Source of the DNA: an archaeon
GTDB lineage: Archaea; Nanobdellota; Nanobdellia; Pacearchaeales; GW2011-AR1
Assembly: GCA_027343665.1 (NCBI GenBank)
Contig: DAHWKL010000001.1
Coordinates: 386,278-450,277 of the forward strand
Direction: 5' to 3'
Length of the DNA stretch: 64,000 nucleotides
In this document: positions 1,799 to 52,568 of the stretch, one piece after another
Position numbering within the stretch: position 1 is the stretch's first letter
Layout of the letters: every line of letters starts with the position of its first letter
Program-made: the position numbers and the translations under genes
The notes under the pieces: model-generated
Database searches by the model: none
Seen by the model: only the letters and a program-made list of their open reading frames with translations
Told to the model about the DNA's origin: nothing

Positions 1799-3190
1799 AT
1801 GGCAGATAATTTCTTAAAAAGTGAAGGAAAAGATATAAAGAATGTCCTCTCAAGATTCAAAAAAAGAAATTTCACAGGAGATACAGGACAAGCTATAAAA
1901 AATTCAAGCTATCAGGTAGCTCAGAATATCCTGATGAAAGTTGGGTCCCTGATATTCACAATAATTGTTGCCAGAATATTGCTTCCAGATCTTTTCGGAC
2001 TCTATAGTCTTGCACTTTCGACTATTGTCTTGTTTTCATCTTTCTCTGATTTGGGCATAGGCGGAGCAATGATGACTTTCATACCTAAAATGCTTTCAAG
2101 AAAAAATCCCGAGAAAGCAAAGGGCTATCTGAAAAAATTAATGGTGTGGAAAGTATGGCTCATGGTCTTTTGTTCTCTTGCACTTGTCGGTTTTGCATAT
2201 TTCATATCAAATGACTATTATAATAAACCTATATTCTACGCACTTATTACAGGAGCAGCATATATCCCCCTTGTAGGACTTGAATCATTTTTTGAAAATT
2301 TGTTTAAATTGAATAATGATTTCAAGACACCCACAAAAAAAGAAGGAATATTTCAAGCTGCAAGATTAATACTTGTTCCTTTAGCCGCACTTCTTGTTGT
2401 GACGATCGGGACAACCCCAGACCAGTCTACAGGAATAGTAATATTCTCGCTAAACTTAGCATATTTAATTGATGTCTTGTATATGGCCCTTGTCTCCAAA
2501 AAAAGAATTCCATTCCTGAATTCAAAATCAAGGAATCTGAATGCAAGGGAAACAAAAGGACTGAAAAAATTCTTGACTCCACTGGTGACAATGTCTCTTT
2601 CAGGAGTTTTTTTTGGATATATTGATACTATAATGCTTGGTCATTATGTCAATGCAGAGTATATCTCATATTACAGCGCTGCATTTAACCTTGTAGGCAG
2701 CGCGGCTGCAGTGATAGGATTTGCAGCAACAGCTCTTTTCCCGATCTTCTCAAGAGTAAACGGAAAACGCCTTGAAGAGATTTTCAAAAAATCAATGGGA
2801 TTCACTTTTCTGATCTCTTTTGTAGCCGGCTTAATTTCTTATTTCTTTGCGGAGCTCATAATAGAAATCTCTTATGGTTCTGAATATATAACTTCTACTC
2901 CCATACTTAGATGGTTCAGTATACTCATAATTGTGGTCCCAATGCTAGGACTATATACTAGCTACTTCATATCAAAAAAAAGGACCGGAATAATCGCATG
3001 GCTTCTTATAATGACTACTCTCCTGAACATAATCCTGAATTTCTTCTTCATAACTTATGGATTGCAGTTCAGCCAGCTGGATGCGGTCCTCGGCGCATGC
3101 TTCGCGACAATAATTTCAAGAATGATTTACTTTATTGGGCTATGGATTGCAAAAAAAATTGAACCTATGAAAAAGAAGAAAGGAAATTAA
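1799..3190 (+). CDS. Wzx-like oligosaccharide/polysaccharide flippase (MOP superfamily)
   Basis: 463 aa with about 12-14 TM helices in the usual polysaccharide-biosynthesis-protein layout. It sits in a glycosylation context. Confidence 0.65.
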   Translation: MADNFLKSEGKDIKNVLSRFKKRNFTGDTGQAIKNSSYQVAQNILMKVGSLIFTIIVARILLPDLFGLYSLALSTIVLFSSFSDLGIGGAMMTFIPKMLSRKNPEKAKGYLKKLMVWKVWLMVFCSLALVGFAYFISNDYYNKPIFYALITGAAYIPLVGLESFFENLFKLNNDFKTPTKKEGIFQAARLILVPLAALLVVTIGTTPDQSTGIVIFSLNLAYLIDVLYMALVSKKRIPFLNSKSRNLNARETKGLKKFLTPLVTMSLSGVFFGYIDTIMLGHYVNAEYISYYSAAFNLVGSAAAVIGFAATALFPIFSRVNGKRLEEIFKKSMGFTFLISFVAGLISYFFAELIIEISYGSEYITSTPILRWFSILIIVVPMLGLYTSYFISKKRTGIIAWLLIMTTLLNIILNFFFITYGLQFSQLDAVLGACFATIISRMIYFIGLWIAKKIEPMKKKKGN

Positions 3191-3217: not shown

Positions 3218-3994
3218 ATGAAAGACAACAAATTGTGGATATTTATACACGCACCAAGAACAGGCGGAACAAGCTTGATAACCTATATTAAACAATCAGT
3301 TCCAAAAGAGGAAGTAATAATCCCCTCTAATATCCGATATGGATTTGAGAGTTCAGATTTTGACAAAAAAAAAGCAAGATTCATTCTTGGTCACGCAACA
3401 TATTATGGGATACATCAAGAATTTCCCGGGAAAAAACCAATGTATTTCACCTTCTTAAGAGATCCTGCAGAAAGAATTGTTTCTTTTTATAATGAAAAAT
3501 TCAAAAATTACCCCCAATCTGAGATTGTACCATTCGAAAAATGGTATAAATCACAACCAAAAAATGAGTTGGTCCGGTTTTACAATTTAAAATTGCAAGG
3601 CTCTGAGTCCTCTCATATAAAAATTCCAAGGATTTTAGCATTTTTTTTGAAATTTATCAGAATTGGATACAAAATGTCTAATTTTTTACAAAGTTCAATC
3701 AGAAAAATTCATCCTTATTCTCAGACAGATAAAGATTTAGAAAATGCAAAGAGGTTTCTAAAAAAATGCCATTTTGTTGCTATAATTGAAAATAGCAAAG
3801 AAGATTCTAAGTTCCTTTTTAAGTTGATGGGAATAAAAGGAATAAAATGGGAGAGATCTTCAACCTACAGTAAAAAAATAATTGAGATCAACAAAAAAAT
3901 AAGGGAAATGGTTTATAGAGATAATCCATTAGATTATAAACTTTATAAGTACGCTTTAGAACTAAACAATATCATTAAAAAAAGGCATAAATAA
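3218..3994 (+). CDS. Sulfotransferase family protein
   Basis: 258 aa. The N-terminal IHAPRTGGTS matches the 5'-PSB loop (h-PKTGGTS) of carbohydrate sulfotransferases, and a later RDPxxR motif (FLRDPAERIVS) is present. Confidence 0.55.
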   Translation: MKDNKLWIFIHAPRTGGTSLITYIKQSVPKEEVIIPSNIRYGFESSDFDKKKARFILGHATYYGIHQEFPGKKPMYFTFLRDPAERIVSFYNEKFKNYPQSEIVPFEKWYKSQPKNELVRFYNLKLQGSESSHIKIPRILAFFLKFIRIGYKMSNFLQSSIRKIHPYSQTDKDLENAKRFLKKCHFVAIIENSKEDSKFLFKLMGIKGIKWERSSTYSKKIIEINKKIREMVYRDNPLDYKLYKYALELNNIIKKRHK

Positions 3995-4000
3995 AAAATT

Positions 4001-4747
4001 TTAAAGATAGATAGTTCTTACGTTTGCTTTAGAAATTTCTTGAATTTTTCCTTTTAGGTTAAATTGTGATTCCACTTCTGAAACTTTTGATTCAAAAAGG
4101 TTTAAATAATTTTTATTGAAATCATTCCTATTTTTTATTATATTATAAACAAAACTTTTTACTTTGAGCAATTTTGCTCTGAGTCTTAAGCTCCTCTCCT
4201 TTTCAGGAAGTTCCAATATGTATTCCAAATCCATTAAATCTGAAAATCTATCCAAGATCTCAGTATTTATAACTTCTTTTCCCGCACCAATAATCCTGCT
4301 TATATGCTCGGTATATCTTTGAGGGAGGTTGATTCCGTCTGGTTCTCTTGAGAGGCTTTTATCTTCTTTTAAAATTTTTAAGCCAGATATTAAATATTTT
4401 TTACCTTTCATGAAAGCTTTCTGTTTAAGTGATTCTTCAGATACATCAGTATCTTCTAGAATATCATGGAGAGAAGCAATAAGCAGGCTATCAAGATCAT
4501 TTTCACTGAATAGATTCATAAGTCTCACCATATAGATAGAATGAAAAACAAGAGGGGTCACCTTATCATTCCTTAGCTTGCCTTTAAAAGAATGAATCAG
4601 AAAGCTGAAAACAGACTTTATAGTTTTACCATATATTGGAATTTGATCGGCTATCCTGTAAGCTTCAAGCAGATTATCTTTCTTTTGAAAACTACTTTTT
4701 ACATTTTGATAATCCTTCTCGATCTCATTTAAACTTGGGAAGGTCAT
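4001..4747 (-). CDS. HD-domain phosphohydrolase, RelA/SpoT (ppGpp-hydrolase / small alarmone hydrolase)-like
   Basis: 248 aa. Motifs are H..(FHSIYMV), ASLHDILEDTDVS (the LHDxxEDT motif of RSH hydrolase domains) and a downstream DRFSDLMDL resembling ADRLHNMR. Its ATG overlaps the stop of the upstream gene (ATGA). Confidence 0.6.
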   Translation of the reverse strand: MTFPSLNEIEKDYQNVKSSFQKKDNLLEAYRIADQIPIYGKTIKSVFSFLIHSFKGKLRNDKVTPLVFHSIYMVRLMNLFSENDLDSLLIASLHDILEDTDVSEESLKQKAFMKGKKYLISGLKILKEDKSLSREPDGINLPQRYTEHISRIIGAGKEVINTEILDRFSDLMDLEYILELPEKERSLRLRAKLLKVKSFVYNIIKNRNDFNKNYLNLFESKVSEVESQFNLKGKIQEISKANVRTIYL

Positions 4748-5289
4748 TTTAAAAGAGATATCAGTTTACTCGATAGATAATGCATTCTTTCCGGTTTAAT
4801 TATAATTTTTTCCACGGGCTCCATCTTTATAAAAGATTTCCCATCTTTGTCAGCATATCTTACGCTATGTTCAAAAGTAGAGTCCACCGTATAGGGTTGT
4901 CCGATCTTGCCCGCCCATGGAAAAATCTTTATATGAAAATGCTCTTCTGGATGTTTAGATTTTCCATAAGTTCCAACACGAATTACCCCTTCATCATTTT
5001 CATAACCACGACTTTCTAAACTCATAATTTCTGTCACGGCTTTACTTATCTTCGAAAAAGCAATTCCATAACTTTTGGCAAGATTTAAACTTTTAGAAAT
5101 TTCAGAGATATGATTTAAGTGATTCACAGGCATTAATTGGACAGTGAAATCTTTCTCAGGATTGCCGCCAGTCTTAGGAGAAAGTGTAGCAAACCAGCCG
5201 TTTTTTTTATAAACTATCACTGCCCCATAAGGCGTTTTTTCACCCAAACCAAGTTTGGACTCAGAACATAAATCACATAATTTCTTCAT
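4744..5289 (-). CDS. HIT-superfamily-like protein (degenerate histidine triad HxHxK)
   Basis: 181 aa. It has an N-terminal CDLC, LMPVNHLNH, and EEHFHIKIFPW in the position of the HxHxHxx triad. There is a 1-nt gap to the upstream gene and a 4-nt overlap with the downstream HD gene. Confidence 0.45.
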   Translation of the reverse strand: MKKLCDLCSESKLGLGEKTPYGAVIVYKKNGWFATLSPKTGGNPEKDFTVQLMPVNHLNHISEISKSLNLAKSYGIAFSKISKAVTEIMSLESRGYENDEGVIRVGTYGKSKHPEEHFHIKIFPWAGKIGQPYTVDSTFEHSVRYADKDGKSFIKMEPVEKIIIKPERMHYLSSKLISLLK

Positions 5290-5290
5290 C

Positions 5291-6379
5291 TTATTTTTTT
5301 ACGACTCTTATATACTCATCGTCTCTTTTTCCGTTGATATGAGAAACAAAATAACCCACAACAATCCGATAATATTTTTCACCGGATTTTCCCGAGACTT
5401 CTTCCACAACCCCTTTAAACTCAATTACTTCTCCGGGGAATGCCAACATACAATAATCTCTTGAGTAAAAAACGACTTTTTCGATGTTTAAATCCCTGCA
5501 GGAGTTATCCCCTTCAATAAATATACATTTTTCAACTTCATAACAGCCGGGCCTTACAACAGAGTTTATATTACCCTTGACAAGAGCTTTAAATTTAGCA
5601 TCCCCTATCTTTTTGTACCTTTCTTCTCCCCACTTGCACCAAGTTTCATCCGGGTTTTCTATCCCAAAAATAACAAATAAGGTATTTCTGAAAAAACCCT
5701 CAGACTTCTTATTATTCATTCTCTCAAGATAATCCTTTTTATCCTGAAGGATATACCTATTTCTTTTTTTATAGAAAGTTTCCCATTCATTGTAAGTTTT
5801 CCATCTCAAATCTTTATGTCTATGCTTTTTTAAAAATTCCATAAGCGCCCAGAAATTTTTCTTTCCATAAACGACTACATTGATATCTGACATGTTTTGA
5901 GAGTAATATCCCATAATTGTTGAGTAAGTCACACCGAAACTATCAAGATTTATTCCACTTTTAAGGAAGAAATTAACAAGGTCTACCACTTTTTTCAAAT
6001 GTTCATCGAGATCTTTATAAGGAAGGGTCATGAGCTCCTTTAAACCTTCCTTTGGCGAATAAATCTTGTCAATGTATTCTTTAGGGATGCTGAAAAAGTG
6101 TAAATCTGGACTATGCACATCACTTTTAAAAATGTAATGGGGATAAGCTCTCGCAAAGTCTTGGAAGTACTTTCGTAAGTTTATCTTATCAATCCAAAGG
6201 TCCAATCGGTTAACTTTCCTTCCAAGGATAAACCTATATGGAAGAGCATCACTCGAAATTTTATCTGTTGGGATGTACTTGGGTTTCACAATTAACCTAC
6301 CTTTTGGATGCTCATTACTGTATACAAGGCATTGCAGTCCATCTTTTGTAGTGATAATTGATGATTCTGGAAAGTACAT
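5291..6379 (-). CDS. Pol-beta-superfamily nucleotidyltransferase with possible C-terminal OB-fold region, paralog 2
   Basis: 362 aa. GVTYSTIMGYYSQNMSDINVVVYG fits the minimal NTase motif. The C-terminal 100 aa are beta-rich and might be an OB fold. It aligns along its whole length with the adjacent 365 aa ORF. Confidence 0.5.
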   Translation of the reverse strand: MYFPESSIITTKDGLQCLVYSNEHPKGRLIVKPKYIPTDKISSDALPYRFILGRKVNRLDLWIDKINLRKYFQDFARAYPHYIFKSDVHSPDLHFFSIPKEYIDKIYSPKEGLKELMTLPYKDLDEHLKKVVDLVNFFLKSGINLDSFGVTYSTIMGYYSQNMSDINVVVYGKKNFWALMEFLKKHRHKDLRWKTYNEWETFYKKRNRYILQDKKDYLERMNNKKSEGFFRNTLFVIFGIENPDETWCKWGEERYKKIGDAKFKALVKGNINSVVRPGCYEVEKCIFIEGDNSCRDLNIEKVVFYSRDYCMLAFPGEVIEFKGVVEEVSGKSGEKYYRIVVGYFVSHINGKRDDEYIRVVKK

Positions 6380-6380
6380 T

Positions 6381-7478
6381 TTAAATCAACGCTTTTATAA
6401 ATTCTTTTTCCCTCCTTTCGTTAAGGTAAGCATCAAAATAACCAACAACAACCCTATAATATTTCTTTCCAATCTTGGGGGTTACAAGCTCAAGAAGACC
6501 ACATGCACTTATCTCTTCTCCCTTGATGGCTTGCTGAACAAAAGGTATCGAGAAAGTGACTATCTTTTTTATTTCAAGTGATGGGTCGAAAGAGTTTATT
6601 CCTTCCATTTTTAGTATTTCCGCATCTTTTATACCATAAAAACCCGGTCTCACATGACTATTATAATGATCTGTTACTTTGCCTTTTACTGTAACAATCC
6701 CGAGAGGCTCATATTTTTCCTCTCCCCATTTGAACCAAGTTTCTCCTGGATCTTCTACAGTGAAAAGGGTGAATACATTGCCCCCAAACATCCCCTCATA
6801 CCTCTTTCTTTTCATATGTTTGATATATTCATCTTCAGTAAAGTGCAAGGACTCAGAAGTTTTATGATCTTTATAATATTCTGACCACTCCTGATCAGTT
6901 TTCCAGTGAAGTTTTTGATGCTCAGCTGTCTTCAGATAGTCCAGGATTTTCCATCCATTATCTTTTCCATAAACAATTACATCTATATCTGACTTCCCAG
7001 GAGTATAATTTCCAAGTAAAGTTGAATGCGTTATACCCATAGATTCTGTCTTCACCCCACTTTTTACCAGGAATTTTATCAGTTCCACGACATTACTCAA
7101 ATAAGAATCCAAATCTTTTCCCGGAACCTTCATCAGTTCCTGAAGACCTTTTCTCGGATCATGAACTTCTTTTATCTTGCTTTTAGGAACAACAAAAAAC
7201 CAATTCCCTGAAGATTTATCCTCATAGATGTAATCAGGAAAATTCTTCTTAAATTGATCGACATAATTTTTAAGTTTGTCTTTTTGAGCGAACAGATTGA
7301 ACCTGATTAGGCACTTCTCAAACAGGAAACGATATTTCAGACCTTCCCCTTTTAGTGCACCTGAAGGGATATACTTAGGTTTTACGATGATGTACCCTTT
7401 AGGATGCTCATTTGAATAAGATTTACATTGAAAACCATCAACAGTATCTATAAGAACAGATTCATAAAAATGTGCCAT
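6381..7478 (-). CDS. Pol-beta-superfamily nucleotidyltransferase with possible C-terminal OB-fold region, paralog 1
   Basis: 365 aa. GITHSTLLGNYTPGKSDIDVIVYG fits hG[GS]x9-13DxD. It is the first gene of a 4-gene minus-strand operon. A TATA-like ATTTTTAT lies about 27-34 nt upstream of the ATG. Confidence 0.5.
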   Translation of the reverse strand: MAHFYESVLIDTVDGFQCKSYSNEHPKGYIIVKPKYIPSGALKGEGLKYRFLFEKCLIRFNLFAQKDKLKNYVDQFKKNFPDYIYEDKSSGNWFFVVPKSKIKEVHDPRKGLQELMKVPGKDLDSYLSNVVELIKFLVKSGVKTESMGITHSTLLGNYTPGKSDIDVIVYGKDNGWKILDYLKTAEHQKLHWKTDQEWSEYYKDHKTSESLHFTEDEYIKHMKRKRYEGMFGGNVFTLFTVEDPGETWFKWGEEKYEPLGIVTVKGKVTDHYNSHVRPGFYGIKDAEILKMEGINSFDPSLEIKKIVTFSIPFVQQAIKGEEISACGLLELVTPKIGKKYYRVVVGYFDAYLNERREKEFIKALI

Positions 7479-7535: not shown

Positions 7536-8363
7536 TCATTTATTAATACCTTTCACAGCGAGATAATTCTCATCAGAGATCTTGCTGATTTTATATCCAA
7601 TGGGTTCCAAAACTTTTCTTGATTTATCAAGATATTCTCCATTCCAAGCTTCAAAGATTATTTTAGGGTGGAACTTTCTTAGAGTTTTCTTGGCTCCCCT
7701 AAAAACTTCCGATTCGGCACCTTCAACATCTACTTTGATTAAATCGACCCTTTTTAAGTTTAAAATTTTAATAATATTATCTAATCTGTCTGTTTTTACT
7801 CTAATTTCACCCCTTTTTTTTATTGGAGTGTCTTTTATTAGAGAGTGCCCACCATCTCCCGATTTATCCAAATAAAATGTGCATTCTCCCTTGGAATCTG
7901 AACAAGCTAAATTAAGAGGGATAACATTCTTTAATTTATTCAGAAGGATATTCTTTCTTAAAACAGAAAAATTCTTTGGCTCTGGCTCTATGGCAATAAC
8001 TTTTCCATCACCTCTTAATGCTCTTGCTAAAGGTATTGTATGCATACCTCCATTTGCCCCAATATCAATCACAATACCTTCTTTTATCCAAGGTCTTCCC
8101 CTAATATTTGACTCACTAAGAGAACTAAATCCAAACAAGGTGTATTTATTATTCCCACAAAAAAATAGACCATATTTGTTCTTGATTGTAACATTTGATC
8201 TTAGAAGTGGGGAAGAAGTTATATTCCTTAGATGATTAATCAAAAAGAGATCAATCCTCATATAATAGCTTAGTATTGTGAATTTGTCCTTTAATGTATA
8301 AGCCTCACTTATCAAAGTTACCACAAATCTCATTCTCTTAATTAAACGCGACAGCACTTGCAT
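7536..8363 (-). CDS. FkbM-family SAM-dependent methyltransferase
   Basis: 275 aa with IDIGANGGMHT (SAM motif I) and LIKVDVEGAESEVFRGA, typical of the FkbM family. Confidence 0.7.
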   Translation of the reverse strand: MQVLSRLIKRMRFVVTLISEAYTLKDKFTILSYYMRIDLFLINHLRNITSSPLLRSNVTIKNKYGLFFCGNNKYTLFGFSSLSESNIRGRPWIKEGIVIDIGANGGMHTIPLARALRGDGKVIAIEPEPKNFSVLRKNILLNKLKNVIPLNLACSDSKGECTFYLDKSGDGGHSLIKDTPIKKRGEIRVKTDRLDNIIKILNLKRVDLIKVDVEGAESEVFRGAKKTLRKFHPKIIFEAWNGEYLDKSRKVLEPIGYKISKISDENYLAVKGINK

Positions 8364-8407: not shown

Positions 8408-9538
8408 ATGCTTATGAAAGTTGCTATGCTTGCTCCAGATGAGAGCTATGAAAAGGGGATTTCGACGTACGCAATAAAATTAATAGAAGCCATAAAAGAA
8501 GAAGGAATTTCTATTGAATCAGTAAAGTACAAAAACAGGAAGCTGTTTTCGCTTTTAAGAGTGATTCCAAATCTTAAGGGATATGACGTAATTCACATAC
8601 ATCATGAGAACAGACTTTTTGGAATCATAGATGGTATCTGGTTTATGCCGTTTATAACCTTATTAAGAATTTTCAGCAGAGCGAAAATAATTATGACCTT
8701 TCACACCGTACATACAAGAGACGAGCAGTTATTTTCTTTACATCCTTTTCTGAATTTTTTAAAGAGAAATTTTACACATCCACTAAATTATATTTTTGCA
8801 AATCTCTTTGCAGATAAATTCATAGTTATGGCACCTTTCTTAAAAGAAAAGTTATCTCAAGCTTCGCCTATAAAAAAAGAAAAGATAGTTTTTATTCCTC
8901 CAGGTATAAATTTTAATACTCCTAAATTTGATAAAAGTAAATCAAAAGAAGAGCTTAATCTAAAAGGATTTGTATATCTAATTATTGGTACCTTAGGACA
9001 GAATAAAGGAGTTGATTTAATTTTAACACAAGCAAAAAAGATTGGAAAGACTATCCTGATTGCAGGAAATTTGGGGGGCTCAAAACAAGGTTATGCTGAA
9101 GAATTGCAGGATTATGTGAAAAAAAATGGACTAAATAAAATTGTGAGGCTTGATCTTATGAATGAAATTCCTTCAAAATCCCCTCCACTTTGGTGGAAAT
9201 ATTTTTCGGCTGCAGATTTGATTCTTTTACCTTATCGTGTAACAACTACAAGCGGAATTTTTATTGACGCGATGAGCTCTGAAAGACCAGTAGTGAGCTC
9301 AAACCTTGATTATTTCCGAGAGATTTCAAAAAATTATGGGTGCATCAAAATTGCAAAAAAAGTTGAAGATTATCCTAAAGTGATAAAAGAAGCATTAAAA
9401 CAGCACAAATTCATGGAAAAAGAAGCCAGGAGATTTAAAAGATTAAATGATATCTCTTTGGTTGGGATGAAGCATAAAGAGTTATATAAAGAAGTAATAA
9501 ATCAAGATAAATCATTACTTAAGAAGAGATTAACATGA
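8408..9538 (+). CDS. Glycosyltransferase family 1 (GT4-type)
   Basis: 376 aa with a GT-B layout; the N-terminus reads MKVAMLAP...GISTY. The stop overlaps the next ATG (ATGA). Confidence 0.6.
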   Translation: MLMKVAMLAPDESYEKGISTYAIKLIEAIKEEGISIESVKYKNRKLFSLLRVIPNLKGYDVIHIHHENRLFGIIDGIWFMPFITLLRIFSRAKIIMTFHTVHTRDEQLFSLHPFLNFLKRNFTHPLNYIFANLFADKFIVMAPFLKEKLSQASPIKKEKIVFIPPGINFNTPKFDKSKSKEELNLKGFVYLIIGTLGQNKGVDLILTQAKKIGKTILIAGNLGGSKQGYAEELQDYVKKNGLNKIVRLDLMNEIPSKSPPLWWKYFSAADLILLPYRVTTTSGIFIDAMSSERPVVSSNLDYFREISKNYGCIKIAKKVEDYPKVIKEALKQHKFMEKEARRFKRLNDISLVGMKHKELYKEVINQDKSLLKKRLT

Positions 9539-10299
9539 AACAAACTTCGGGAAAATTTACAAAGATTATAAAATTAATAATGGAGGGTCAGAAACTAAAT
9601 GATAAGATTAAGTTAATTTATATTCTTCTCAGAAGATATTTTGGATTAAAAGGGCAAAAAGAATTAATGCTCCAAAATTCCGATGGAACATTTAAGGTGA
9701 GAGCAAATGATAGTGATTTGTGGATATTAACCTCTCTTGGTGATAAAGAGATGAGACCTTATTTTAATGTTGATGAGGGTACCTTTATTGATATAGGAGC
9801 AAATGTAGGAAAATACTCAATAATCTTGGCAAAAAATCCAAATATCAAAGTGATTGCTTTTGAGCCAGACCCTTATAATCTTGAAGCTCTCAAGTTCAAT
9901 ATTGTTCTTAATAATTCTCCTGTCGTTATAAAAGATATTGCACTCTCTAATAAAAAAGGAACAGCAAGTTTTTTTCTCAATCCCGACAATCAGGGAAACT
10001 CTTCATTACTTAATTCGGGGCAGAAAGGAGAGGAGATATTTGTTAAAACAGACACTTTAGACAATGTTCTTAAAGACAACAAAGAGAGGATTTCATTAAT
10101 AAAGATTGATGTCGAGGGTTTTGAAGCTGAAGTTTTACAAGGAGCCAGAGAGACAATAAGAAAGTTCCACCCTAAAATAATCTTTGAAGCTTGGAATGGA
10201 GAATATTTAGACAGATGCATGGAGGTTTTGAATCCATTGGGATACTCAACTAAGAAGATAAATGGAGGAAATTACCTGGCAAAGTATATTAAAAATTAA
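9535..10299 (+). CDS. FkbM-family SAM-dependent methyltransferase (paralog of 7536-8363)
   Basis: 254 aa with IDIGANVGKYS and LIKIDVEGFEAEVLQGA. Its C-terminal RKFHPKIIFEAWNGEYLD is identical to the paralog. Confidence 0.7.
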   Translation: MKQTSGKFTKIIKLIMEGQKLNDKIKLIYILLRRYFGLKGQKELMLQNSDGTFKVRANDSDLWILTSLGDKEMRPYFNVDEGTFIDIGANVGKYSIILAKNPNIKVIAFEPDPYNLEALKFNIVLNNSPVVIKDIALSNKKGTASFFLNPDNQGNSSLLNSGQKGEEIFVKTDTLDNVLKDNKERISLIKIDVEGFEAEVLQGARETIRKFHPKIIFEAWNGEYLDRCMEVLNPLGYSTKKINGGNYLAKYIKN

Positions 10300-19222: not shown

Positions 19223-22201
19223 TTATGCACCTTGATTTACAAGAGAAGAATTAAAATAAGGAATCATGGGAGCATTAGACTTGTTTAAGCTAACTTGGGG
19301 GTTTTTTGTAAAAGCCAGATTATCATCAGCACCATAAATCCCTGAGGAAGCCATGAAAGCGGGCTGCGAGATGATCCCTGCTTGGGTAATTGCAGTTTCA
19401 TTAACATACCAAATGTCAAGTGGTCCCTGAAATCCGCCATAATAAAAATTGAAAGGATAAGCTCCCTGACTCTGAACGAGCTTTAATTCAGGATATTCAT
19501 GTCTTGGATCATTCATGAGATAAATCTCCGCAACAAGACTATTTTGAGTCCTTTGAGAAAGATACATTGCAGCCCCATGTTGGTCAAACTGATTATTGTA
19601 AAAATTAGGATAAACATAAACTGTTGCATTCACACCTGAATGGAAATCCAAAAGCTTTCCGTCAATGTACATATATTCTATAGGCTCTTCATATTGCTGC
19701 CCATTGTAAACATAAATCCCCTGAGGTTGGTAATAAGAACTGTTGGATTCATGTATTAATATTGCCCCCAAACCTGCGCTTCCTGCAGGCAGAAGAATTG
19801 GACCGGTACTGGCATTTATTATCAGATCATCATCAAGGGGGAAACCTCCCTGGTAGATTCGCGTTGTTCCGTTATTTGTCTCTTGAGTTTGAGAGGGATC
19901 TGAAACAAAAGTCTGAAGATAAGATTCTCTATCTGAAATGTTCTCTGAATTTCCAATCGAAGAATATGCAGGATATTTTCCAATATCTGTTGGGTCTATA
20001 AGAAGATAAGAAACATTATGGGTCTTCATGAAACTCAATGCCGTATCCGGTTTTGGTGTTGTCAAAACATACCTTCCCATCATATAATCCCAGTAAGCAT
20101 TGAAGTTCCCCCCATCAAGAACGGTGGTTCTAAGACCTGCTGTCTGGATGAGATAACCATAATCCCACCAGCTGAGGAATATACTGCCAGGAGCGGTATT
20201 ATTTCTGACCCATGACATTGCATTTTGCCAATAGTTGTCCATCAATGGGCCGGTATTCGCCGCCTGAACATTCGACATATAATAAGCGCCTGGAGAATTT
20301 GCTGAAAAAGGGTTCCCAAACATGTAAGCAAAAGAAAGAACTATGGCAAGAGCAAGAACAATTCCATAAACATATTTCATCCCCTCTTTTTTAGAATTCT
20401 TTATTCCCTGCAATGACCTTAGAATCAAATAAGCACCTATAATAGCTATAAAAGGAGCGACAAGGAATATTGTCCTTTGAGCAGCTCTTATGGTCACAAG
20501 CATTACGATCATCCAAGAATAAAGAAAGAGCAGATTGGTGTCAATTTTTTCCTTACTTCTGAGGTAGATAAATATCAAGCTGCCTAAAAGCCCGATAAAA
20601 CCAAGGAAGTAAACAAACTGGCTCAAGAAATTCACACCATCAAAAATACTTGTGGATGAATATCTGCTGAAAAGAACAGCAATCATGGAAGCTATCCCAA
20701 TGATAGAGAGATAAAATCTTTCTTTTTGTGATTTGATATTTCTTGTAAATTCAATCAAAATTAGAGCACTTCCCAAAATGAAGAGCCAGAAAAAAGAAAG
20801 CATTATCTGAGACTGGAAATCCGTAAGGTAAGGTTGGGCATAATAAGCGACAGTTAAACCAACTCTGTTTGTTCCAAGAGGATGAATTAGCTTTAGATAG
20901 ATATCTAAAAATACCTTGAAGCCTTCCCCCCTCGAAATGAACAACACGATTATGCCAATCATCAAAGTTTCAATCGCAGAGATAATAATTTTGAACTTTG
21001 ATTTTCTTACTTTTTCAAAAATCCCCCTTTTGAAATAATCAAAAGAGTAATCAACAAGCGCAAAAAGGAAAACTCCGGGTACTAGTATTCCTCCTGAAGT
21101 CAAGAAAAAAGAGTAAAGGTAACGGGGGGTATAATGCACAAATGATATTGTGATTAACGAAACAGCTACAAAAAGTATATAATATAGTATGAAGTTTTCT
21201 TTCTTTTTTGGTTCATTCCGAAGATTAAAAACATAATACAAAAATAATGCAATAGGAAGTATAAGGAACATGAAGTTTGCAGTTCCGTTCCATGAAGCAT
21301 AAGTTAAAGTTATAAAAATACCTGTGACAACCCCCCATATTGAGGCTTTAATTTTATCTTTTCCGAGTTCTTTGAGGCTGATTATAAATACAAGGAAAAC
21401 TGCAAAAAGGAACATTGTACCAAGAGCTTCATGGCCCGAAACACCCGCTATTGTCCTGAATAAAAAAGCAGGGGAGTAAGCCAGGAAAACACTTCCAATT
21501 ATAGAAGCTGTTTTTGATTTTGTAAGGTAATATATCAAGAAAAAGAAGATGGCAAGAGCTATAAGAAAAGCATAAGCAGGGTAGATTGTATCAATGAATT
21601 GGTAAGTTATCGCACTATTGAAAGAATGAAGAAGATTATAAGCTCCGACGACTGCATAAACAACTAAATCATGGGCAAAAGTAACATTCAACCCCGGATT
21701 TCTCATTGTGTCTATTCCGGAAATATTCCCCCCGGTCACAAGACGCCCTTCAAGCCTAAGCCAGTACATTGCATCAGGGTCAGCTAAGGTATAATTCCCG
21801 GTGGTATGATCAATCAATAATGGGAGATTAGATAGCCTCATACCCACAGATAAAATCGCAAGAATCGCAAAAATGACAACAACAAGTCCCCACTGGAATT
21901 TTTTGTTTTTCAAAAAGCTCCAGTTAAAATTGAAATTGATTGTGTCATCCTCTTTATTTCTATCTTTCTCTTCAGAGTTATGCCCCTCTTTATGCTCCTT
22001 ATGATGCCCCTTCTTTAGATGGATTTCATGAATTTCCTTATTAGGTGTTTCCTCTTTCTTTTCACTTACAGCTGCATCAGAAGATTTTTCTTCAGACAGA
22101 CTCTTCTCTCCCAAAGACAATGGTCTGATTTCAGAATCGGATTTAGCGCCGTTTATAGAATTATCAATGGGCTCTTCTTTTTTTCCTTCTTCTGAATCCA
22201 T
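19223..22201 (-). CDS. aglB: Archaeal oligosaccharyltransferase AglB (STT3 family) with about 95 aa charged N-terminal extension
   Basis: About 990 aa with 13+ TM helices and the WWDYGY motif (SWWDYGYLIQ). The track start at 22204 is TTG; the ATG is at 22201. Confidence 0.85.
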   Translation of the reverse strand: MDSEEGKKEEPIDNSINGAKSDSEIRPLSLGEKSLSEEKSSDAAVSEKKEETPNKEIHEIHLKKGHHKEHKEGHNSEEKDRNKEDDTINFNFNWSFLKNKKFQWGLVVVIFAILAILSVGMRLSNLPLLIDHTTGNYTLADPDAMYWLRLEGRLVTGGNISGIDTMRNPGLNVTFAHDLVVYAVVGAYNLLHSFNSAITYQFIDTIYPAYAFLIALAIFFFLIYYLTKSKTASIIGSVFLAYSPAFLFRTIAGVSGHEALGTMFLFAVFLVFIISLKELGKDKIKASIWGVVTGIFITLTYASWNGTANFMFLILPIALFLYYVFNLRNEPKKKENFILYYILFVAVSLITISFVHYTPRYLYSFFLTSGGILVPGVFLFALVDYSFDYFKRGIFEKVRKSKFKIIISAIETLMIGIIVLFISRGEGFKVFLDIYLKLIHPLGTNRVGLTVAYYAQPYLTDFQSQIMLSFFWLFILGSALILIEFTRNIKSQKERFYLSIIGIASMIAVLFSRYSSTSIFDGVNFLSQFVYFLGFIGLLGSLIFIYLRSKEKIDTNLLFLYSWMIVMLVTIRAAQRTIFLVAPFIAIIGAYLILRSLQGIKNSKKEGMKYVYGIVLALAIVLSFAYMFGNPFSANSPGAYYMSNVQAANTGPLMDNYWQNAMSWVRNNTAPGSIFLSWWDYGYLIQTAGLRTTVLDGGNFNAYWDYMMGRYVLTTPKPDTALSFMKTHNVSYLLIDPTDIGKYPAYSSIGNSENISDRESYLQTFVSDPSQTQETNNGTTRIYQGGFPLDDDLIINASTGPILLPAGSAGLGAILIHESNSSYYQPQGIYVYNGQQYEEPIEYMYIDGKLLDFHSGVNATVYVYPNFYNNQFDQHGAAMYLSQRTQNSLVAEIYLMNDPRHEYPELKLVQSQGAYPFNFYYGGFQGPLDIWYVNETAITQAGIISQPAFMASSGIYGADDNLAFTKNPQVSLNKSNAPMIPYFNSSLVNQGA

Positions 22202-22279
22202 CAACCTATCAAGAATAAACCGTTTTTAAAGTTTGTTTATCCTGAATCTTAATCTTTAGTTTTAGAAGCTTAATAAAAC

Positions 22280-24957: not shown

Positions 24958-25025
24958 TCAATCCTGAAAATTTTTCGATATATAAAGGTTGTTAAAATGA
25001 AAGAGATAAATCAAAAGAAAAAATG

Positions 25026-25139
25026 AAAGACGACTTAATGGTTTCGCATCTTGTCGGACACTAAAGCCAGTAACGTAGGAAGCTTAACTTCTGTGTTCGG
25101 AAAGGGAACAGGTGTTTCCAACCTACTATGGCCGTCTTC
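25026..25139 (-). rRNA. 5S rRNA (not linked to 16S/23S in this window)
   Basis: The reverse complement reads GAAGACGGCCATAGTAGG...CCTGTTCCCTTTCCGAACACAGAAGTTAAGC...AAGTCGTCTT. This gives a conserved loop C/helix III core and a closing helix I (25131-25138 pairs with 25027-25034). Confidence 0.8.
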
Positions 25140-25271
25140 AGAATTTTGAGAAAGAAGTGGTTTATAAAACTTTTTATACCCTCATCTTATAGGAATAATA
25201 TCAATTTCCACAATATGTGGGTGTGCCGGAAAGTTCAAGATTGAAGATGAACTCACCGTCACATAATTCAT

Positions 25272-25354
25272 GTGGGTGTGCCGGAGTGGTCAAACGGGCA
25301 AGATTAAGGCTCTTGTGGTTTATCCTTACCTAGGTTCGAATCCTAGCACCCACA
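25272..25354 (+). tRNA. tRNA-Leu (class II, long variable arm); anticodon loop TTAAGGC reads as AAG
   Basis: Hand fold: acceptor GTGGGTG/CACCCAC, D-arm CCG-GAGTGGTCAAA-CGG, anticodon stem CAAGA/TCTTG, variable arm TGGTTTATCCTTACC and T-arm CTAGG-TTCGAAT-CCTAG. Confidence 0.75.
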
Positions 25355-25367
25355 TATCTTCCAACAT

Positions 25368-25444
25368 GCCTGGGTAACTCAGCTTGGATTTAGAGTGCCA
25401 CCCTCCTAAGGTGGAAGTCGCAGGTTCAAATCCTGCCCCGGGCG
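25368..25444 (+). tRNA. tRNA-Arg (anticodon CCT)
   Basis: Hand fold: acceptor GCCTGGG/CCCGGGC, anticodon stem CCACC/GGTGG with loop CTCCTAA, and T-arm GCAGG-TTCAAAT-CCTGC. Confidence 0.75.
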
Positions 25445-25502
25445 TTTTTTAAAAATCATAAGAGTATACAAGAACTTTAAATTTGAAACCCTTGATGCGT
25501 TT

Positions 25503-25637
25503 ATGCCTTTTAAAGACCCTGAAAAAAGGAGAGAATATCAAAGGAGATAGTTTCGAGGGTTATTCAATAAAAAGAATAAAGAGGGGATCAGTAAATGCCA
25601 GATATTATGTGCAAATTGCCACAGAAAGATTCATTGA
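25503..25637 (+). pseudogene. Remnant of a small HNH endonuclease gene with an in-frame TAG
   Basis: It translates as MPFKDPEKRREYQRR*FRGLFNKKNKEGISKCQILCANCHRKIH*. The LCANCHRKIH end is a typical HNH C-terminal motif. The central part of the domain is missing, and an in-frame TAG lies at 25548-25550. Confidence 0.4.
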
Positions 25638-25681
25638 AAAAAGAATAAATTTTAAAAGGTAATTATATGAGATTATTAGAG

Positions 25682-25753
25682 GCGTGGATAGTATAGCGGT
25701 TAGTATAACTGGCTTCCAACCAGTTGACCCGGGTCCGAATCCCGGTCCGCGCA
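25682..25753 (+). tRNA. tRNA-Gly (anticodon TCC)
   Basis: Hand fold: acceptor GCGTGGA/TCCGCGC, anticodon stem ACTGG/CCAGT with loop CTTCCAA, and T-arm CCGGG-TCCGAAT-CCCGG. The T-loop has C where U55 is expected. Confidence 0.7.
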
Positions 25754-36738: not shown

Positions 36739-38703
36739 TTAAGGTTGTGAATATGAATCTGAAATTTTAAGGAGCTTTCTCCATCCTTTGCTGCTCCTCT
36801 CTTCTTTCTGGACAATTATACCTTTTTCTACAAGTTTGTCTTTTATAACATTTCCCTTTCTTGAAGATAAACCTACAGCTTTGTACAATTCAACTGTCGA
36901 TAAATTATGAGTGGGATTCTCCACGAGGAAATTTATGAGGGTGGTCTCTTCGGGAGAAAATGAACTGTTGGGAACGGATATTGTATCTATAGGAATGTCG
37001 GACTTATCTGATTTGAAACTCTTGATATCCATATTTTCAGCTAATATTTTATTCATGACTATAAGAACATCTTTTTTTGTATAATATCCTGAAGATACTC
37101 CTGAATCAAGAAGTTTTTCAACTTCCAAAAGGTTCAGTCTCTCTTTTGATTTTTTAGATGCAAAATCATAGAGAATCTTCTGAGTTTTTGAAAGCAAGCT
37201 TCCTATAACTACTTCTTCCTTCCTGGACTTTTCGGCTTTAATAATGGGTTTTCCAGGAGTTTCATTCTCAACTTCCCTGCCATTAAAAACTATTTTCTCT
37301 TTGAATTTTGGATCACTTTTTTCTGTTTCAGCAACTTCAGCCACAAATTCCATCTTGCTTTTTATTTTCTCTGAAGTAAGCGAGAGATTTCTCAGTTCGT
37401 CGAAAGGAACTTCGATCAGGAAAGGAGAGGTATATCTCTCTGAAAGTTTTACAATAGCAGATCCGACCTTTAACTCATTGAATATATCCATTTTATCCTT
37501 TAACCTCATCAGAGAGCTGACTTCTTCAACATCTGACGGAAGTTGCTGCTGGAAAGCGATATGACAAGCACTGTTTCCCACAACAGTATCTGAGAGTTTC
37601 GAGATATGTTGATCCAAACAGATTAAGCTTGTCCCGTATTCACGCATCTCTCTATAGACCATATCCGTAACAGACTCGGACATGAAATTTGTATCTTTTT
37701 TAAGAAAGATGTTATGAGCTTCGTCCACAAGGATCGCATTTTTGAATTCTCCGTTTGATTTAATCTCTCCTGCTTTCTTCAGCTTAAAGGTATAAGTCAG
37801 AAGATATTCACAGAAAAATTTCTTCTCAATATTTGAAAGGGAATTCAACTCAAAAATTACCTGTTTATTAAAAAGCTCTTCTATTGAGATGCTTTTTTTT
37901 CCGTCGTAGTTCACAACTTTTCCGAAATCGCCAAAGGTCAATACGGTCGCAATCCTAAGAGCACTCTCATACCAACCGGTCTCTCTTCCTTTTGAATCTC
38001 TTGCTTTGATTTCAAGCATTTTCTTCACATGCTCCCAATTAGGGTATAAATCTGAACCTTGGTAAACCCCCCACCCTTCAAAAGTTTCATCAAGTGTCTC
38101 AAGAAGAATTTTATGAACTCCAAAGGAAACATTAAAGGTTTCGGTGAGCAAGTCACAAAGAACATTTATCCATTCTTTAGGACTTACCCCATTCGGGGGC
38201 CGGTTTATATTAGTCTTAAAAAAGTTGCTTATCTGATTGTTTCCTACTGTGAAACACATGACTGACGGATTCACCTCAAGAAGTGGCCTGAAGCTTTTTT
38301 TCCAGTCAAAGACCATGAATGGCTTCTCTTTTCTCAGGAAATTTTTAAGAATATTCAAGGCAAGGGTCGTCTTCCCGCTCCCACTCATTCCCGTTATGCA
38401 AATATGCCTTGGCCAATCTTTCTCCCTTAAAGAAAAGTCAAATAATTTTTTTCCCGCATAACTAACTTTAGCTAAAGGGTATTCCCCGTCAAACGAGCCT
38501 TCTGAAGGCGGTTCTAAGGAAAAATCCTTATCAAGGAGTTTTGAAAGATGCCTCTGATAAAGAGAAGACAATATCTGAAAGATTTCATTTTTCTCTTCAT
38601 TATCTTCACTGTTCATGTACCTGAAATAAATTTCATCAATTTTGCTCCCAAGTATAGGCTTTAATTTTCTTGCCAGATCTTCGACGGAAATTCGTGTTTG
38701 CAT
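36739..38703 (-). CDS. FtsK/HerA-superfamily P-loop ATPase (DUF87/T4CP-like) with possible C-terminal winged-helix region
   Basis: 654 aa with Walker A ITGMSGSGKTT, FDWKKSF, and Walker B AILVDEAHNIF. The C-terminal LSTVELYKAVGLSSRKGNVIKDKLVEKGII reads as a possible HTH pattern. There is a 1-nt gap to the upstream gene. Confidence 0.65.
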   Translation of the reverse strand: MQTRISVEDLARKLKPILGSKIDEIYFRYMNSEDNEEKNEIFQILSSLYQRHLSKLLDKDFSLEPPSEGSFDGEYPLAKVSYAGKKLFDFSLREKDWPRHICITGMSGSGKTTLALNILKNFLRKEKPFMVFDWKKSFRPLLEVNPSVMCFTVGNNQISNFFKTNINRPPNGVSPKEWINVLCDLLTETFNVSFGVHKILLETLDETFEGWGVYQGSDLYPNWEHVKKMLEIKARDSKGRETGWYESALRIATVLTFGDFGKVVNYDGKKSISIEELFNKQVIFELNSLSNIEKKFFCEYLLTYTFKLKKAGEIKSNGEFKNAILVDEAHNIFLKKDTNFMSESVTDMVYREMREYGTSLICLDQHISKLSDTVVGNSACHIAFQQQLPSDVEEVSSLMRLKDKMDIFNELKVGSAIVKLSERYTSPFLIEVPFDELRNLSLTSEKIKSKMEFVAEVAETEKSDPKFKEKIVFNGREVENETPGKPIIKAEKSRKEEVVIGSLLSKTQKILYDFASKKSKERLNLLEVEKLLDSGVSSGYYTKKDVLIVMNKILAENMDIKSFKSDKSDIPIDTISVPNSSFSPEETTLINFLVENPTHNLSTVELYKAVGLSSRKGNVIKDKLVEKGIIVQKEERSSKGWRKLLKISDSYSQP

Positions 38704-40254: not shown

Positions 40255-40309
40255 CTTTTCTACTTTGTTATAACTGACAAAAGGTGAAATTTCTGAAAAA
40301 GAAAACGAA

Positions 40310-40392
40310 TGTGGGTGCTAGGATTCGAACCTAGGTAAGGATGAACCAACAGATTTTGAGTCTGTCCCGTTTGACCACTCCGGCACACCCAC
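40310..40392 (-). tRNA. tRNA-Leu (anticodon CAA)
   Basis: The reverse complement reads GTGGGTGTGCCGGAGTGGTCAAACGGG-ACAGA-CTCAAAA-TCTGT-TGGTTCATCCTTACC-TAGGTTCGAATCCTAGCACCCACA. Outside the anticodon arm it is identical to the tRNA-Leu at 25272 except for 1 nt. Confidence 0.8.
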
Positions 40393-40549
40393 ATTATCTG
40401 TGTGACTGTGAGCTCATAACTCCTGAACTCCAGGCACACTTTATTACGGAATTTTTATAACACAAACATTTATAAAATAAACTAATTTTGGAATTTCACC
40501 TGCGAGTAAAAAGCGCATAGCGGGAAAAACTTTTTCTCGTTAAGCTACA

Positions 40550-42109: not shown

Positions 42110-42532
42110 TTATTTTTTTATACCATTTCTTTCCAGTTTGTCCTGCACATGGTTGAAGAGCGTTGACGAAACTAATGGATCATGATTACCATCATGCACC
42201 ACGCCATCAAATTTTATTTTTCCAAGATAAGTGAAATTCCTTAATACTTTTTTTATCCCGTTAACAGAAAATCCATACTTTTTTGCGAGCTTGTTCAGAC
42301 TGATATTAGTATCCTGAAAATCCAAAAAAATATTTTCAACAATCGGAGAACTTTCAGATTTTTCAAGGAGTCCTTCAACAATTTTGTATCCAAAAGGAGC
42401 TCGGGAAACCGCATGGCCACTTTTTGCCCTTGACTCCATACCTTTTTTCAATTTTTCTTTTTCAAATCTTAAGAGTTCGATCTCCCTTTTAAGTTTCTCA
42501 TTCTCTTTTTTCAGCTCTTCATTCTCGTTCAT
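42110..42532 (-). CDS. Coiled-coil + serine-recombinase 'Recombinase' domain protein lacking the catalytic resolvase domain
   Basis: 140 aa. The N-terminal 30 aa are heptad-rich (EELKKENEKLKREIELLRFEKEKLKK). This is followed by APFGYKIVEG..., IVENIFLDF, SLNKLAKKYG and VLRNFTYLGKIKF, which match the Recombinase DNA-binding domain. It overlaps xerA by 14 nt. Confidence 0.55.
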   Translation of the reverse strand: MNENEELKKENEKLKREIELLRFEKEKLKKGMESRAKSGHAVSRAPFGYKIVEGLLEKSESSPIVENIFLDFQDTNISLNKLAKKYGFSVNGIKKVLRNFTYLGKIKFDGVVHDGNHDPLVSSTLFNHVQDKLERNGIKK

Positions 42533-44969: not shown

Positions 44970-45158
44970 ATGTTCGGATTTCTTCTCGTTGCCGGAACTT
45001 TGCTGAAACTTATTGGAGTAATAAGCATAGATTCTGACTGGTTCTGGTTCCTCACAGGGATTGCATTGACAATTGAGGGATTCATAAACATGCTTAAGCA
45101 GTGGCAGTTTGACCGAAAATATAAAATTATTCTGAGAGATGATCTAAAGGAAAATTAA
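44970..45158 (+). CDS. Possible small 2-TM membrane protein
   Basis: Only the C-terminal 62 aa of track ORF 44814-45158 is hydrophobic and does not overlap the LysE gene. The start is uncertain. Confidence 0.25.
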   Translation: MFGFLLVAGTLLKLIGVISIDSDWFWFLTGIALTIEGFINMLKQWQFDRKYKIILRDDLKEN

Positions 45159-47104: not shown

Positions 47105-47145
47105 GAAAAATCTAAAAGAGAAGGGATTAAAAGATTTATGGGCAT

Positions 47146-48723: not shown

Positions 48724-48753
48724 AAGGATGCAAAAGGGAATTAAATTATAAAT

Positions 48754-52528: not shown

Positions 52529-52568
52529 GTTTAAAGGTGTTTAAAGGTGTTTAAGTGTGTTTTAAACG
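52529..52568. repeat. Four tandem 10-bp units GTTTAAAGGT/GTTTAAAGGT/GTTTAAGTGT/GTTTTAAACG
   Basis: Read directly from the sequence, about 145 nt upstream of the 52711 ATG. The period is one helical turn. Confidence 0.6.

Follow-up and report, generated by a model that had tools for sequence, protein, structure and literature searches.

We describe a four-gene operon in a 64,000-nucleotide stretch of chromosome from an archaeon of the Pacearchaeales (contig DAHWKL010000001.1, positions 386,278 to 450,277; hereafter, the window), together with its relatives in other archaea of the DPANN group. The operon encodes two paralogous nucleotidyltransferases (NTases), which we name NT_A and NT_B, a protein with the HIT fold, and an HD-family hydrolase. 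The first three genes form a core triad: this is a vertically conserved chromosomal operon in the glycan clusters of many DPANN lineages. The partners that gather around it, an adenosine 5'-phosphosulfate (APS) kinase, a phosphatase of the type that acts on 3'-phosphoadenosine 5'-phosphate (pAp), and a sulfotransferase, represent three of the four functions of the cycle that makes, uses and recycles 3'-phosphoadenosine 5'-phosphosulfate (PAPS). All three triad proteins have nucleotidyl-transfer folds; they are therefore proposed to supply the remaining function, the formation of APS. From its genomic context, and with moderate confidence, we assign the operon to a conserved DPANN set that serves PAPS supply and recycling for glycan sulfation. 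The narrower form of this proposal is tentative and could well prove wrong: NT_A, NT_B and the HIT protein, with its HxHxK motif, would constitute a new sulfate adenylyltransferase, unrelated by homology to Sat or CysDN, and with it a third solution to sulfate activation, confined to DPANN. To our knowledge, only two enzyme solutions are established, namely Sat, and CysDN with its GTPase.

The four genes all lie on the minus strand and are closely coupled, as the original prediction for this locus had claimed; the open reading frames match its positions exactly. NT_A and NT_B are separated by 1 nt, NT_B and the HIT gene by another 1 nt, and the HIT and HD genes overlap by 4 nt. A sulfotransferase gene is convergent with the HD gene, their stop codons being 6 nt apart.

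6381-7478, minus strand: NT_A, 365 aa, catalytically intact pol-beta-type nucleotidyltransferase
5291-6379, minus strand: NT_B, 362 aa, degenerate paralog of NT_A
4744-5289, minus strand: HIT-fold protein, 181 aa, from a family outside Pfam
4001-4747, minus strand: HD hydrolase of the RelA/SpoT-Mesh1 (HD_4) type, 248 aa, accessory component
3218-3994, plus strand: sulfotransferase, Sulfotransfer_2, 258 aa (Pfam PF03567, E 8e-10)

Two motifs that can be read in the translation of the sulfotransferase, a 5'-PSB-like PRTGGTS and a 3'-PB-like RDPAERIVS, resemble PAPS-binding loops.

A scan of species-representative genomes yielded 26 related loci; contig look-ups were added and duplicates removed, to give 29 independent DPANN loci, across which gene order was mapped by tblastn. 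NT_A is followed by NT_B in 25/25 loci, and the HIT gene follows NT_B at all 22 loci that extend far enough (22/22). This recurrence of the NT_A-NT_B-HIT order is therefore more than chance, and the triad lies in a glycan cluster at every locus. The neighbourhoods surveyed across DPANN archaea have a constant core and a variable HD gene. The possibility had been raised that the two NTases might belong to a characterised housekeeping family that is elsewhere unlinked to HIT or HD genes; what we find is an uncharacterised family, with a link to HIT that is universal in the subfamily. Gene fusions tie the same components together. NT_B is fused to HIT in a 576-aa protein (L023:7064-8794), and to HIT plus a domain that we could not assign in one of 812 aa (L024:7061-9499). 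A PF01663 domain precedes NT_A in proteins of about 815 aa (L016:4612-7074 and L024:4621-7059), and a PF01663-HD-NT_A fusion of 1087 aa is encoded at L018:3808-7071 and L025:3808-7071 (also represented as protein P0242). PF01663 is a domain of the alkaline-phosphatase superfamily.

Another key observation to emerge from these loci concerns the gene that follows HIT. At each of the 23 informative loci (23/23) there is exactly one type of phosphoesterase: a PHP protein at 14, a CysQ-type enzyme of the Inositol_P family at 2, and an HD protein at 7 (the window, L001, L018, L021, L025, L040 and L041). One phosphoesterase per locus is the pattern expected of non-orthologous displacement. The PHP protein matches the NCBIfam model for 3',5'-nucleoside bisphosphate phosphatase (NF041577) at E 1.5e-39 and 135.8 bits, which is below the 400-bit equivalog cutoff, and it matches RNase RNM equally well (E 3e-42). 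This protein, of the PHP-family 3',5'-nucleotide bisphosphate phosphatase (Cv1693/YciV) type, is the commonest phosphoesterase partner of the triad and occupies the slot after HIT that is held by HD in the window; its fold differs from that of HD, and the window has no PHP gene. An unannotated protein or domain of about 271 aa, with no Pfam match, lies between HIT and PHP at three loci (L016:8712-9533, L017:8788-9603, and the C-terminal part of L024:7061-9499); we considered it as a possible HD homolog and ruled it out, as it has no similarity to HD.

The remaining partners point to the PAPS cycle. An APS kinase (PF01583, E 3e-43) is encoded in the cluster at 13 of the 29 loci. In L019 it closes a five-gene operon, NT_A, NT_B, HIT, PHP and APS kinase, the genes of which are joined by stop/start overlaps; PHP and APS kinase are also coupled in L002. 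Elsewhere the kinase is fused to the phosphatase itself, as PHP-APS kinase in L004/L029 and as CysQ-APS kinase in L008 and L023. Nine loci encode sulfotransferases, which belong to three families: homologs of the window's enzyme adjoin the module in L001, L021 and L023, and other sulfotransferase families adjoin HD in L040 and L041. The loci of HD type have extra neighbours in the form of a second HIT paralog and of NUDIX and Metallophos proteins, and CDP-alcohol phosphatidyltransferases and radical-SAM genes are frequent neighbours of the module. Two further observations concern genes that flank the core. A pyruvate-kinase-like protein with an N-terminal winged-helix domain is encoded directly upstream of NT_A in two loci (L017:4633-6000 and L022:1445-2824), where ATP regeneration or regulation is a possible role. 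Five loci (L018:8157-8792, L021:7949-8554, L024:3962-4576, L025:8166-8780 and L040:9668-10267) encode the second HIT-like paralog, which has diverged from the first to 26-32% identity; four of these (L018, L021, L025 and L040) are HD-type, L024 carries PHP, and the window has a single copy.

A canonical enzyme that could make APS was sought in the same DNA. The Sat RNP-loop (Q-x-R-N-P-x-H) and GRDHAG motifs and the CysD SGGKDS motif are absent from every frame of the 483 kb made up by the window and 39 loci; in the window, a regular-expression search for Sat, CysD and APS-kinase motifs matched a UvrA P-loop alone. Nor does any of the four operon proteins match Sat or CysD/CysN in Pfam or NCBIfam. 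The original prediction had offered, as its alternative, that the operon encodes nucleotide-sugar salvage or activation enzymes for the surrounding glycan pathway. That suggestion is supported in a modified form: the partners that recur (APS kinase, sulfotransferases and pAp phosphatases) accord with an activation function for glycan synthesis, but one in which sulfate, and not sugar, appears to be activated.

What, then, do the triad proteins look like? The paralogy of NT_A and NT_B, which had been noted earlier, is borne out by an end-to-end identity of 42% (E 3e-102). Their motifs are H-S-x10-S-D-I-D-V-I-V-Y-G in NT_A, and Y-S-x10-S-D-I-N-V-V-V-Y-G in NT_B. The pol-beta signature, hG[GS]-x9-13-Dh[DE]h, is found in NT_A as G148-x-x-H-S152-x10-S-D164-I-D166. 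The sole Pfam match for the NTases is NTP_transf_2, in NT_A, with a score of 19.5 bits that falls under the gathering cutoff of 21; the Pfam scan returned no NTP_transf_2 match for NT_B. Distant full-length relatives exceed that cutoff (P0271, 39.2 bits; P0265, 29.8 bits), and these are tied to NT_A by HMMER at E ~1e-37 to 1e-40. For residue conservation we aligned 27 NT_A and 29 NT_B orthologs from related loci. In NT_A, H151, S152, S163-D164-x-D166 and E242 are invariant (27/27). NT_B keeps S152, D164 and E242; D166 is replaced by Asn in 25/29 orthologs, and H151 by Tyr in 25/29. Glu242, which is invariant in both paralogs and stands at the end of a strand (residues 234-241) in the predicted model, is a candidate for the third catalytic carboxylate. 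With the catalytic set kept in NT_A and the second Asp lost from most NT_B orthologs, the pair seems to combine a catalytic with a degenerate subunit, and NT_B is probably a non-catalytic or regulatory partner.

The AlphaFold2 (AF2) model of NT_A (pLDDT 93.7, pTM 0.91) has three parts: a beta domain at the N-terminus, the alpha/beta core of the NTase, and a C-terminal barrel that resembles an oligonucleotide/oligosaccharide-binding (OB) fold. Secondary structure in the core follows the motif: helix 125-138, strand 147-149, helix 151-155 and strand 164-170. The beta-rich, OB-like C-terminus that had been predicted is thus present as a barrel, for which Foldseek gave weak matches to OB folds (SSB and the N-domain of lysyl-tRNA synthetase; E 0.1-0.2, probability up to 0.87). 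Weak OB-fold matches are all that Foldseek returned for NT_A against the PDB and viral structures, with no full-length analogue, and TiaS, CCA-adding enzymes and cGAS-like enzymes are absent among its 50 listed matches. Sequence searches of the PDB with NT_A, either as a single sequence or as a profile, gave nothing above noise. Homologs of NT_A number 302 at E <=1e-3, and the 120 listed are 51-87% identical to it; among those 120, every source name that bears an organism is DPANN (Woesearchaeota, Aenigmarchaeota/Aenigmatarchaeota and Nanoarchaeota/Nanoarchaeia). Across the loci fetched from genome collections, which are labelled Woesearchaeota, Nanoarchaeota, Aenigmatarchaeota and Iainarchaeum, NT_A is ~70% identical.

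The 181-aa HIT-like protein has no sequence match in Pfam, NCBIfam or the PDB (the latter searched with both the single sequence and a profile), and a Pfam search with 56 of its homologs at E up to 1 gave random families and no HIT-family model. Its fold emerges from structure prediction: the AF2 model (pLDDT 92.7) matches HIT proteins and GalT in the PDB with Foldseek probabilities of 0.92-1.0, among them 3p0t (E 3.2e-4, probability 1.0), 3i4s (probability 1.0, TMt 0.69) and the GalT structures 6k5z and 5in3. Seven residues are invariant in the 56 homologs: C5 and C8 (an N-terminal CxxC), H57, E116, H117, H119 and K121. The motif H117-F-H119-I-K121-I-F departs from the full histidine triad, H-phi-H-phi-H-phi-phi, in that an invariant Lys replaces the third His, as the original prediction of a HIT fold with a degenerate triad had anticipated; the His at the nucleophile position, His119, is kept. 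The CxxC...H...H pattern is reminiscent of the zinc site of GalT. We regard the protein as a putative nucleotidyl transferase or phosphorylase of the GalT branch. It shares with enzymes of that branch (GalT, Apa1/2 and APS:phosphate adenylyltransferase) the HIT fold and a nucleophile His followed by a non-His residue (HxHxK here, HxHxQ there), whereas it is a small single domain where GalT is a double one, carries Lys in the third place of the motif where the others have Gln or His, and finds no sequence-level match among the HIT/GalT models of Pfam and NCBIfam. Apa1/2 has ADP-sulfurylase activity, and APS:phosphate adenylyltransferase is also a HIT enzyme that acts on APS. Action on APS is reported for Fhit, as an APS-ammonia adenylyltransferase (PMC4613722).

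The HD protein gives weak but consistent matches to spoT_relA (NCBIfam), HD_4, Rel/SpoT structures in the PDB, Mesh1 (3nqw), Lmo0812 and a (p)ppApp hydrolase (7smg). Its own Pfam HD_4 score is 14.9 bits, under the gathering cutoff of 27.2; PF13328 (HD_4) is matched by 24 of 41 HD homologs at E up to 0.01, the best at 7e-9. The assignment to the RelA/SpoT homolog (RSH) type is strengthened by the catalytic set H69, H94-D95, E98-D99 and D166, which aligns with the residues of Rel and Mesh1, and is invariant in the 41 homologs; the loss of catalytic residues that might have undone the assignment was not seen, as H, HD, ED and D are all kept. Mesh1, an HD_4-family member, is an NADPH 2'-phosphatase. 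The window's protein thus shares with small alarmone hydrolases, Mesh1 and the (p)ppApp hydrolase Aph1 both the H...HD...ED...D set and a single-domain size, but it matches them weakly (E 1e-4 to 1e-2), has no RSH synthetase in its neighbourhood, and fills a genomic role that is interchangeable with those of PHP-type and CysQ-type pAp phosphatases. That interchangeability suggests that the substrate is not an alarmone but a 3'-phospho-adenosine nucleotide. By analogy, we infer that HD is a nucleotide 3'-phosphoesterase, an analogue of pAp phosphatases, for which pAp or PAPS might be the substrate.

Bearing these properties in mind, we hypothesize the following cycle. The core triad would carry out adenylyl transfer, from ATP (or ADP) and sulfate to APS, in place of canonical Sat or CysDN; NT_A and NT_B would act in it as heteromeric partners, probably. 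APS kinase, which is encoded in the operon in most relatives and not in the window, would convert APS to PAPS, and the adjacent sulfotransferase, the presumed consumer, would use PAPS on the glycan. HD would strip the 3'-phosphoryl group from the by-product pAp, a task that would fall to a PHP-type pAp phosphatase or to CysQ in other lineages. Where a PF01663 domain is present, it may help by hydrolysing pyrophosphate or a nucleotide by-product. Gene structure and order, folds, conserved catalytic residues, fusions and partner genes are observations; that the substrate is sulfate, how the NTase pair and the HIT enzyme share the work, and what HD acts on are deduced from context. The maker of the S-O-P bond could be either the NTase pair or the HIT enzyme, and we make no choice between them. 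A further variant might apply to the HD-type version, which may work without APS kinase: other 3' chemistry on an adenosine nucleotide, with a SpoT-like hydrolase to recycle the by-product. We also considered HD as a stand-in for both PHP and APS kinase; this idea was dropped, since a hydrolase cannot phosphorylate.

This arrangement has counterparts in canonical sulfate-activation operons, cysD-cysN-cysC(-cysQ) and Sat-CysC, and in eukaryotic PAPS synthase fusions. In all of these, a unit for adenylyl transfer (inferred, in the DPANN loci) stands beside APS kinase and a pAp 3'-phosphatase and would feed sulfotransferases, and fusions of kinase to phosphatase, or of enzyme to enzyme, are also seen in DPANN loci. 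Unlike the canonical units, the triad is not homologous to Sat (PF01747) or CysD/CysN; a heteropair of pol-beta NTases and an enzyme of the HIT fold make up the candidate unit. The window differs additionally in having no APS kinase nearby and an RSH-type HD protein in the place of the phosphatase. A literature search on DPANN sulfation or a new ATP sulfurylase family found nothing relevant. The module appears undescribed, and appears to be a sulfate-activation or PAPS-cycling system built from non-homologous parts.

Relatives outside the DPANN clade provide a second context for the NTase family. A profile search of 1.8 billion representative proteins recovered 914 clusters, and beyond DPANN there are full-length relatives (E 1e-30 to 1e-46), all annotated as hypothetical: Methanocaldococcus jannaschii MJ1086, Vulcanisaeta WP_054850186 and Helarchaeota proteins. 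Four of the loci that encode such distant relatives are as follows.

L036:6001-7023: MJ1086
L037:6001-7089: distant NTase relative
L039:4986-7077: distant NTase relative
L038:5626-7143: distant NTase relative

These MJ1086-like proteins (also annotated 'predicted nucleotidyltransferase') share with the DPANN NTases full-length homology, a three-domain layout and the motif G-S...S-D-I-D-h-h-h-Y-G, and they sometimes occur as tandem paralog pairs, for example in L039. Unlike the DPANN proteins, they lie in clusters for tetrahydromethanopterin (H4MPT), methanofuran and C1 metabolism, where their neighbours include MCH, FTR, MTD, Fae, a CitG-like protein, ATP-grasp, 4HFCP synthase and a DHPS-like protein; they never have a HIT partner, and both copies of a pair keep D-x-D. 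A fusion to HPPK is seen in one distant relative. The DPANN proteins form a clade of their own, far more conserved than the MJ1086-like proteins, in which the B copy is degenerate. On these comparisons, the DPANN triad is best seen as a specialised offshoot of an uncharacterised archaeal NTase family. A literature search found no mention of MJ1086, MJ1085 or COG1665 in the library that it covered. The MJ1086-like proteins may be a missing enzyme of H4MPT biosynthesis, for example a CitX-like transferase that works with the CitG-like protein.

Several points weigh against the assignment of the operon to sulfate activation. The functional case is one of guilt by association, and we found no similarity, in sequence or structure, of the triad to known sulfate-activating enzymes. 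The NTase family is not intrinsically a sulfate enzyme, given its MJ1086-like members in H4MPT/C1 clusters; an NTase pair plus a HIT enzyme, often with a PF01663 domain as well, are redundant candidates for one step; and the OB-like domain might point to a nucleic acid as substrate. The classical activity of RSH-type hydrolases is that of a 3'-pyrophosphohydrolase and not of a monoesterase. The distribution of APS kinase is also awkward: within 6-10 kb it accompanies none of the HD-type loci (0/7), versus 11/16 of the PHP/CysQ-type loci (hypergeometric 792/245157, p ~0.003). The 64-kb window has no APS kinase homolog by tblastn, and neither does the 10 kb past the window's left edge in an 87%-identical relative. 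For the HD-type loci, either the APS kinase gene lies in another part of the genome, or the HD variant has another way of working; the sulfotransferase beside HD in the window nevertheless keeps its motifs that resemble PAPS-binding loops. Lastly, the absence of Sat and CysDN pertains to 483 kb of window and loci, not to whole genomes.

One rival reading is a different chemistry, in which the triad would activate or transfer another group for glycan decoration (for example, a phosphodiester-linked substituent from an NTP-like donor) and the PAPS genes would be co-located since both pathways modify the same glycan. We consider this unlikely, although it has several attractions: a parallel to the CitX-like step beside CitG-like enzymes in methanopterin biosynthesis, given that the distant NTase relatives lie in H4MPT/methanofuran clusters; the fusion to NT_A of PF01663, a phosphodiesterase/pyrophosphatase domain; the CDP-alcohol phosphatidyltransferase and radical-SAM genes often nearby; and the HD-type loci without nearby APS kinase. 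It sits poorly, however, with the translational coupling of PHP and APS kinase to the triad through stop/start overlaps in L019 and L002, with the pAp-type phosphoesterase at every informative locus, and with the physical fusion of HD to NT_A; furthermore, no alternative acceptor pathway is conserved across the loci.

It is also conceivable, but improbable, that the module serves homeostasis or salvage of PAPS and APS. The HIT protein would then serve as a phosphorylase or sulfohydrolase of APS; the breakdown of APS, PAPS or pAp would fall to PF01663 and HD, the recycling of AMP/ADP species to the NTase pair, and the making of APS to a canonical enzyme encoded elsewhere. The HIT enzymes introduced above (Fhit, Apa1/2 and APS:phosphate adenylyltransferase) do act on APS degradatively, the module has many hydrolases attached (HD, PHP, CysQ, PF01663, NUDIX and Metallophos), and a Sat gene outside the loci would have escaped our search. 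On the other hand, salvage would require very small genomes to spend three strongly conserved proteins on it; the intact, transferase-type active site of NT_A suggests synthesis; and no Sat motif stands beside any of the 29 loci, which otherwise gather the pathway.

The original prediction had favoured a module for nucleotide signalling, nucleotidylation or a toxSAS-like toxin-antitoxin function, with the NTases as writers of a second messenger or of AMPylation, and HIT and HD as erasers. We found no support for this, and judge it, or a role in defence, to be very improbable. Such systems do include pol-beta NTases, HIT proteins and HD hydrolases of the small alarmone hydrolase type, the operon's HD protein is similar to that type and to a (p)ppApp hydrolase, and the pairing of an active with a degenerate NTase is known in some signalling enzymes. 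Nevertheless, PADLOC matched none of the four operon proteins, so a known defence system is rejected, and the NTases match no RelA/SpoT synthetase family in Pfam. The module has a stable place in glycan clusters and is highly conserved across DPANN records, with no mobile-element association. HD is dispensable, being present at 7/23 informative loci and absent from 16/23, where the metabolic pAp phosphatases PHP or CysQ replace it, and the partners of the module are APS kinase and sulfotransferases. Equally remote is the notion of a housekeeping RNA/tRNA-modifying or RNA-tailing enzyme, in a glycan cluster by accident and with its OB fold binding RNA: the C-terminal domain does resemble OB folds of the SSB and aminoacyl-tRNA-synthetase types and NT_A is very highly conserved, but the matches to OB folds are weak (E above 0.06), none of the 29 DPANN loci or of the distant relatives has a translational or RNA-related neighbourhood, and linkage to HIT is obligate, with fusions to HIT, PF01663 and HD.

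Should the sulfate-activation proposal hold, a third solution would add a new example of non-orthologous displacement to central sulfur metabolism, these reduced genomes would have a means of making PAPS for sulfated surface glycans, and three sizeable orphan families, with hundreds of members and none covered by Pfam or NCBIfam, would gain functions. It would also mean that many DPANN archaea, whose surfaces mediate host attachment, invest in sulfated glycans, and an RSH/Mesh1-type HD protein acting as a pAp-type phosphatase would widen the roles of the HD family past alarmones. Separately, MJ1086-like proteins emerge from the comparison as candidates for a step that is missing in tetrahydromethanopterin biosynthesis. 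Even if the assignment to sulfate is wrong, the strictly conserved triad and its fusions are a well-defined and testable unknown.

The surroundings of the operon in the window are a glycan/N-glycosylation cluster, in agreement with the setting originally described: around it are a flippase, an NDP-sugar enzyme, epimerases, glycosyltransferases, FkbM and other methyltransferases, and AglB/STT3. As it holds AglB/STT3, the cluster is probably one for N-glycosylation (agl). The flippase is the commonest non-core neighbour of the module, with a homologous cluster in 17 loci. By tblastn, the window has no homologs of PHP, PF01663 or Sulfotransfer_1.

1799-3190, plus strand: Wzx/MurJ-type polysaccharide flippase, 463 aa (Pfam Polysacc_synt/MurJ assigned to homologs)
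19223-22204, minus strand: AglB/STT3 oligosaccharyltransferase, 993 aa
7479-7535, minus strand: intergenic spacer 5' of NT_A, 57 nt, sequence read

The spacer contains a TATA-like element, TTTAAAAA, at 7523-7516 and a G-rich GGGGAT at 7490-7485, ahead of the NT_A ATG; by archaeal promoter consensus, these are a possible operon promoter and ribosome-binding site. Two paralogs of the FkbM-type methyltransferase (7536-8363, minus strand; 9535-10299, plus strand) flank a glycosyltransferase gene in divergent orientation, and a C-terminal stretch of the two is near-identical (…FHPKIIFEAWNGEYLD…).

The window as a whole is archaeal chromosome, with both subunits of PolD (DP1 and DP2), RNA polymerase subunit D, ribosomal protein S11, 5S rRNA and tRNAs. 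The 5S rRNA gene (minus strand) stands beside three plus-strand tRNA genes (Leu-AAG, Arg-CCT and Gly-TCC) at 25025-25753. A tyrosine recombinase gene (Phage_integrase, E 4e-47; 42519-43364, minus strand) lies ~2 kb from tRNA-Leu CAA (40309-40393, minus strand), and a HerA/DUF87-type ATPase is encoded at 36739-38703; together these may mark an integrated element. G+C content is lowest in the window at 52001-56000 (0.28-0.29, versus ~0.36 elsewhere). Finally, a complete bacterial-type UvrB-UvrC-UvrA operon for nucleotide-excision repair is present in this DPANN archaeon, at 45155-51627 on the minus strand.

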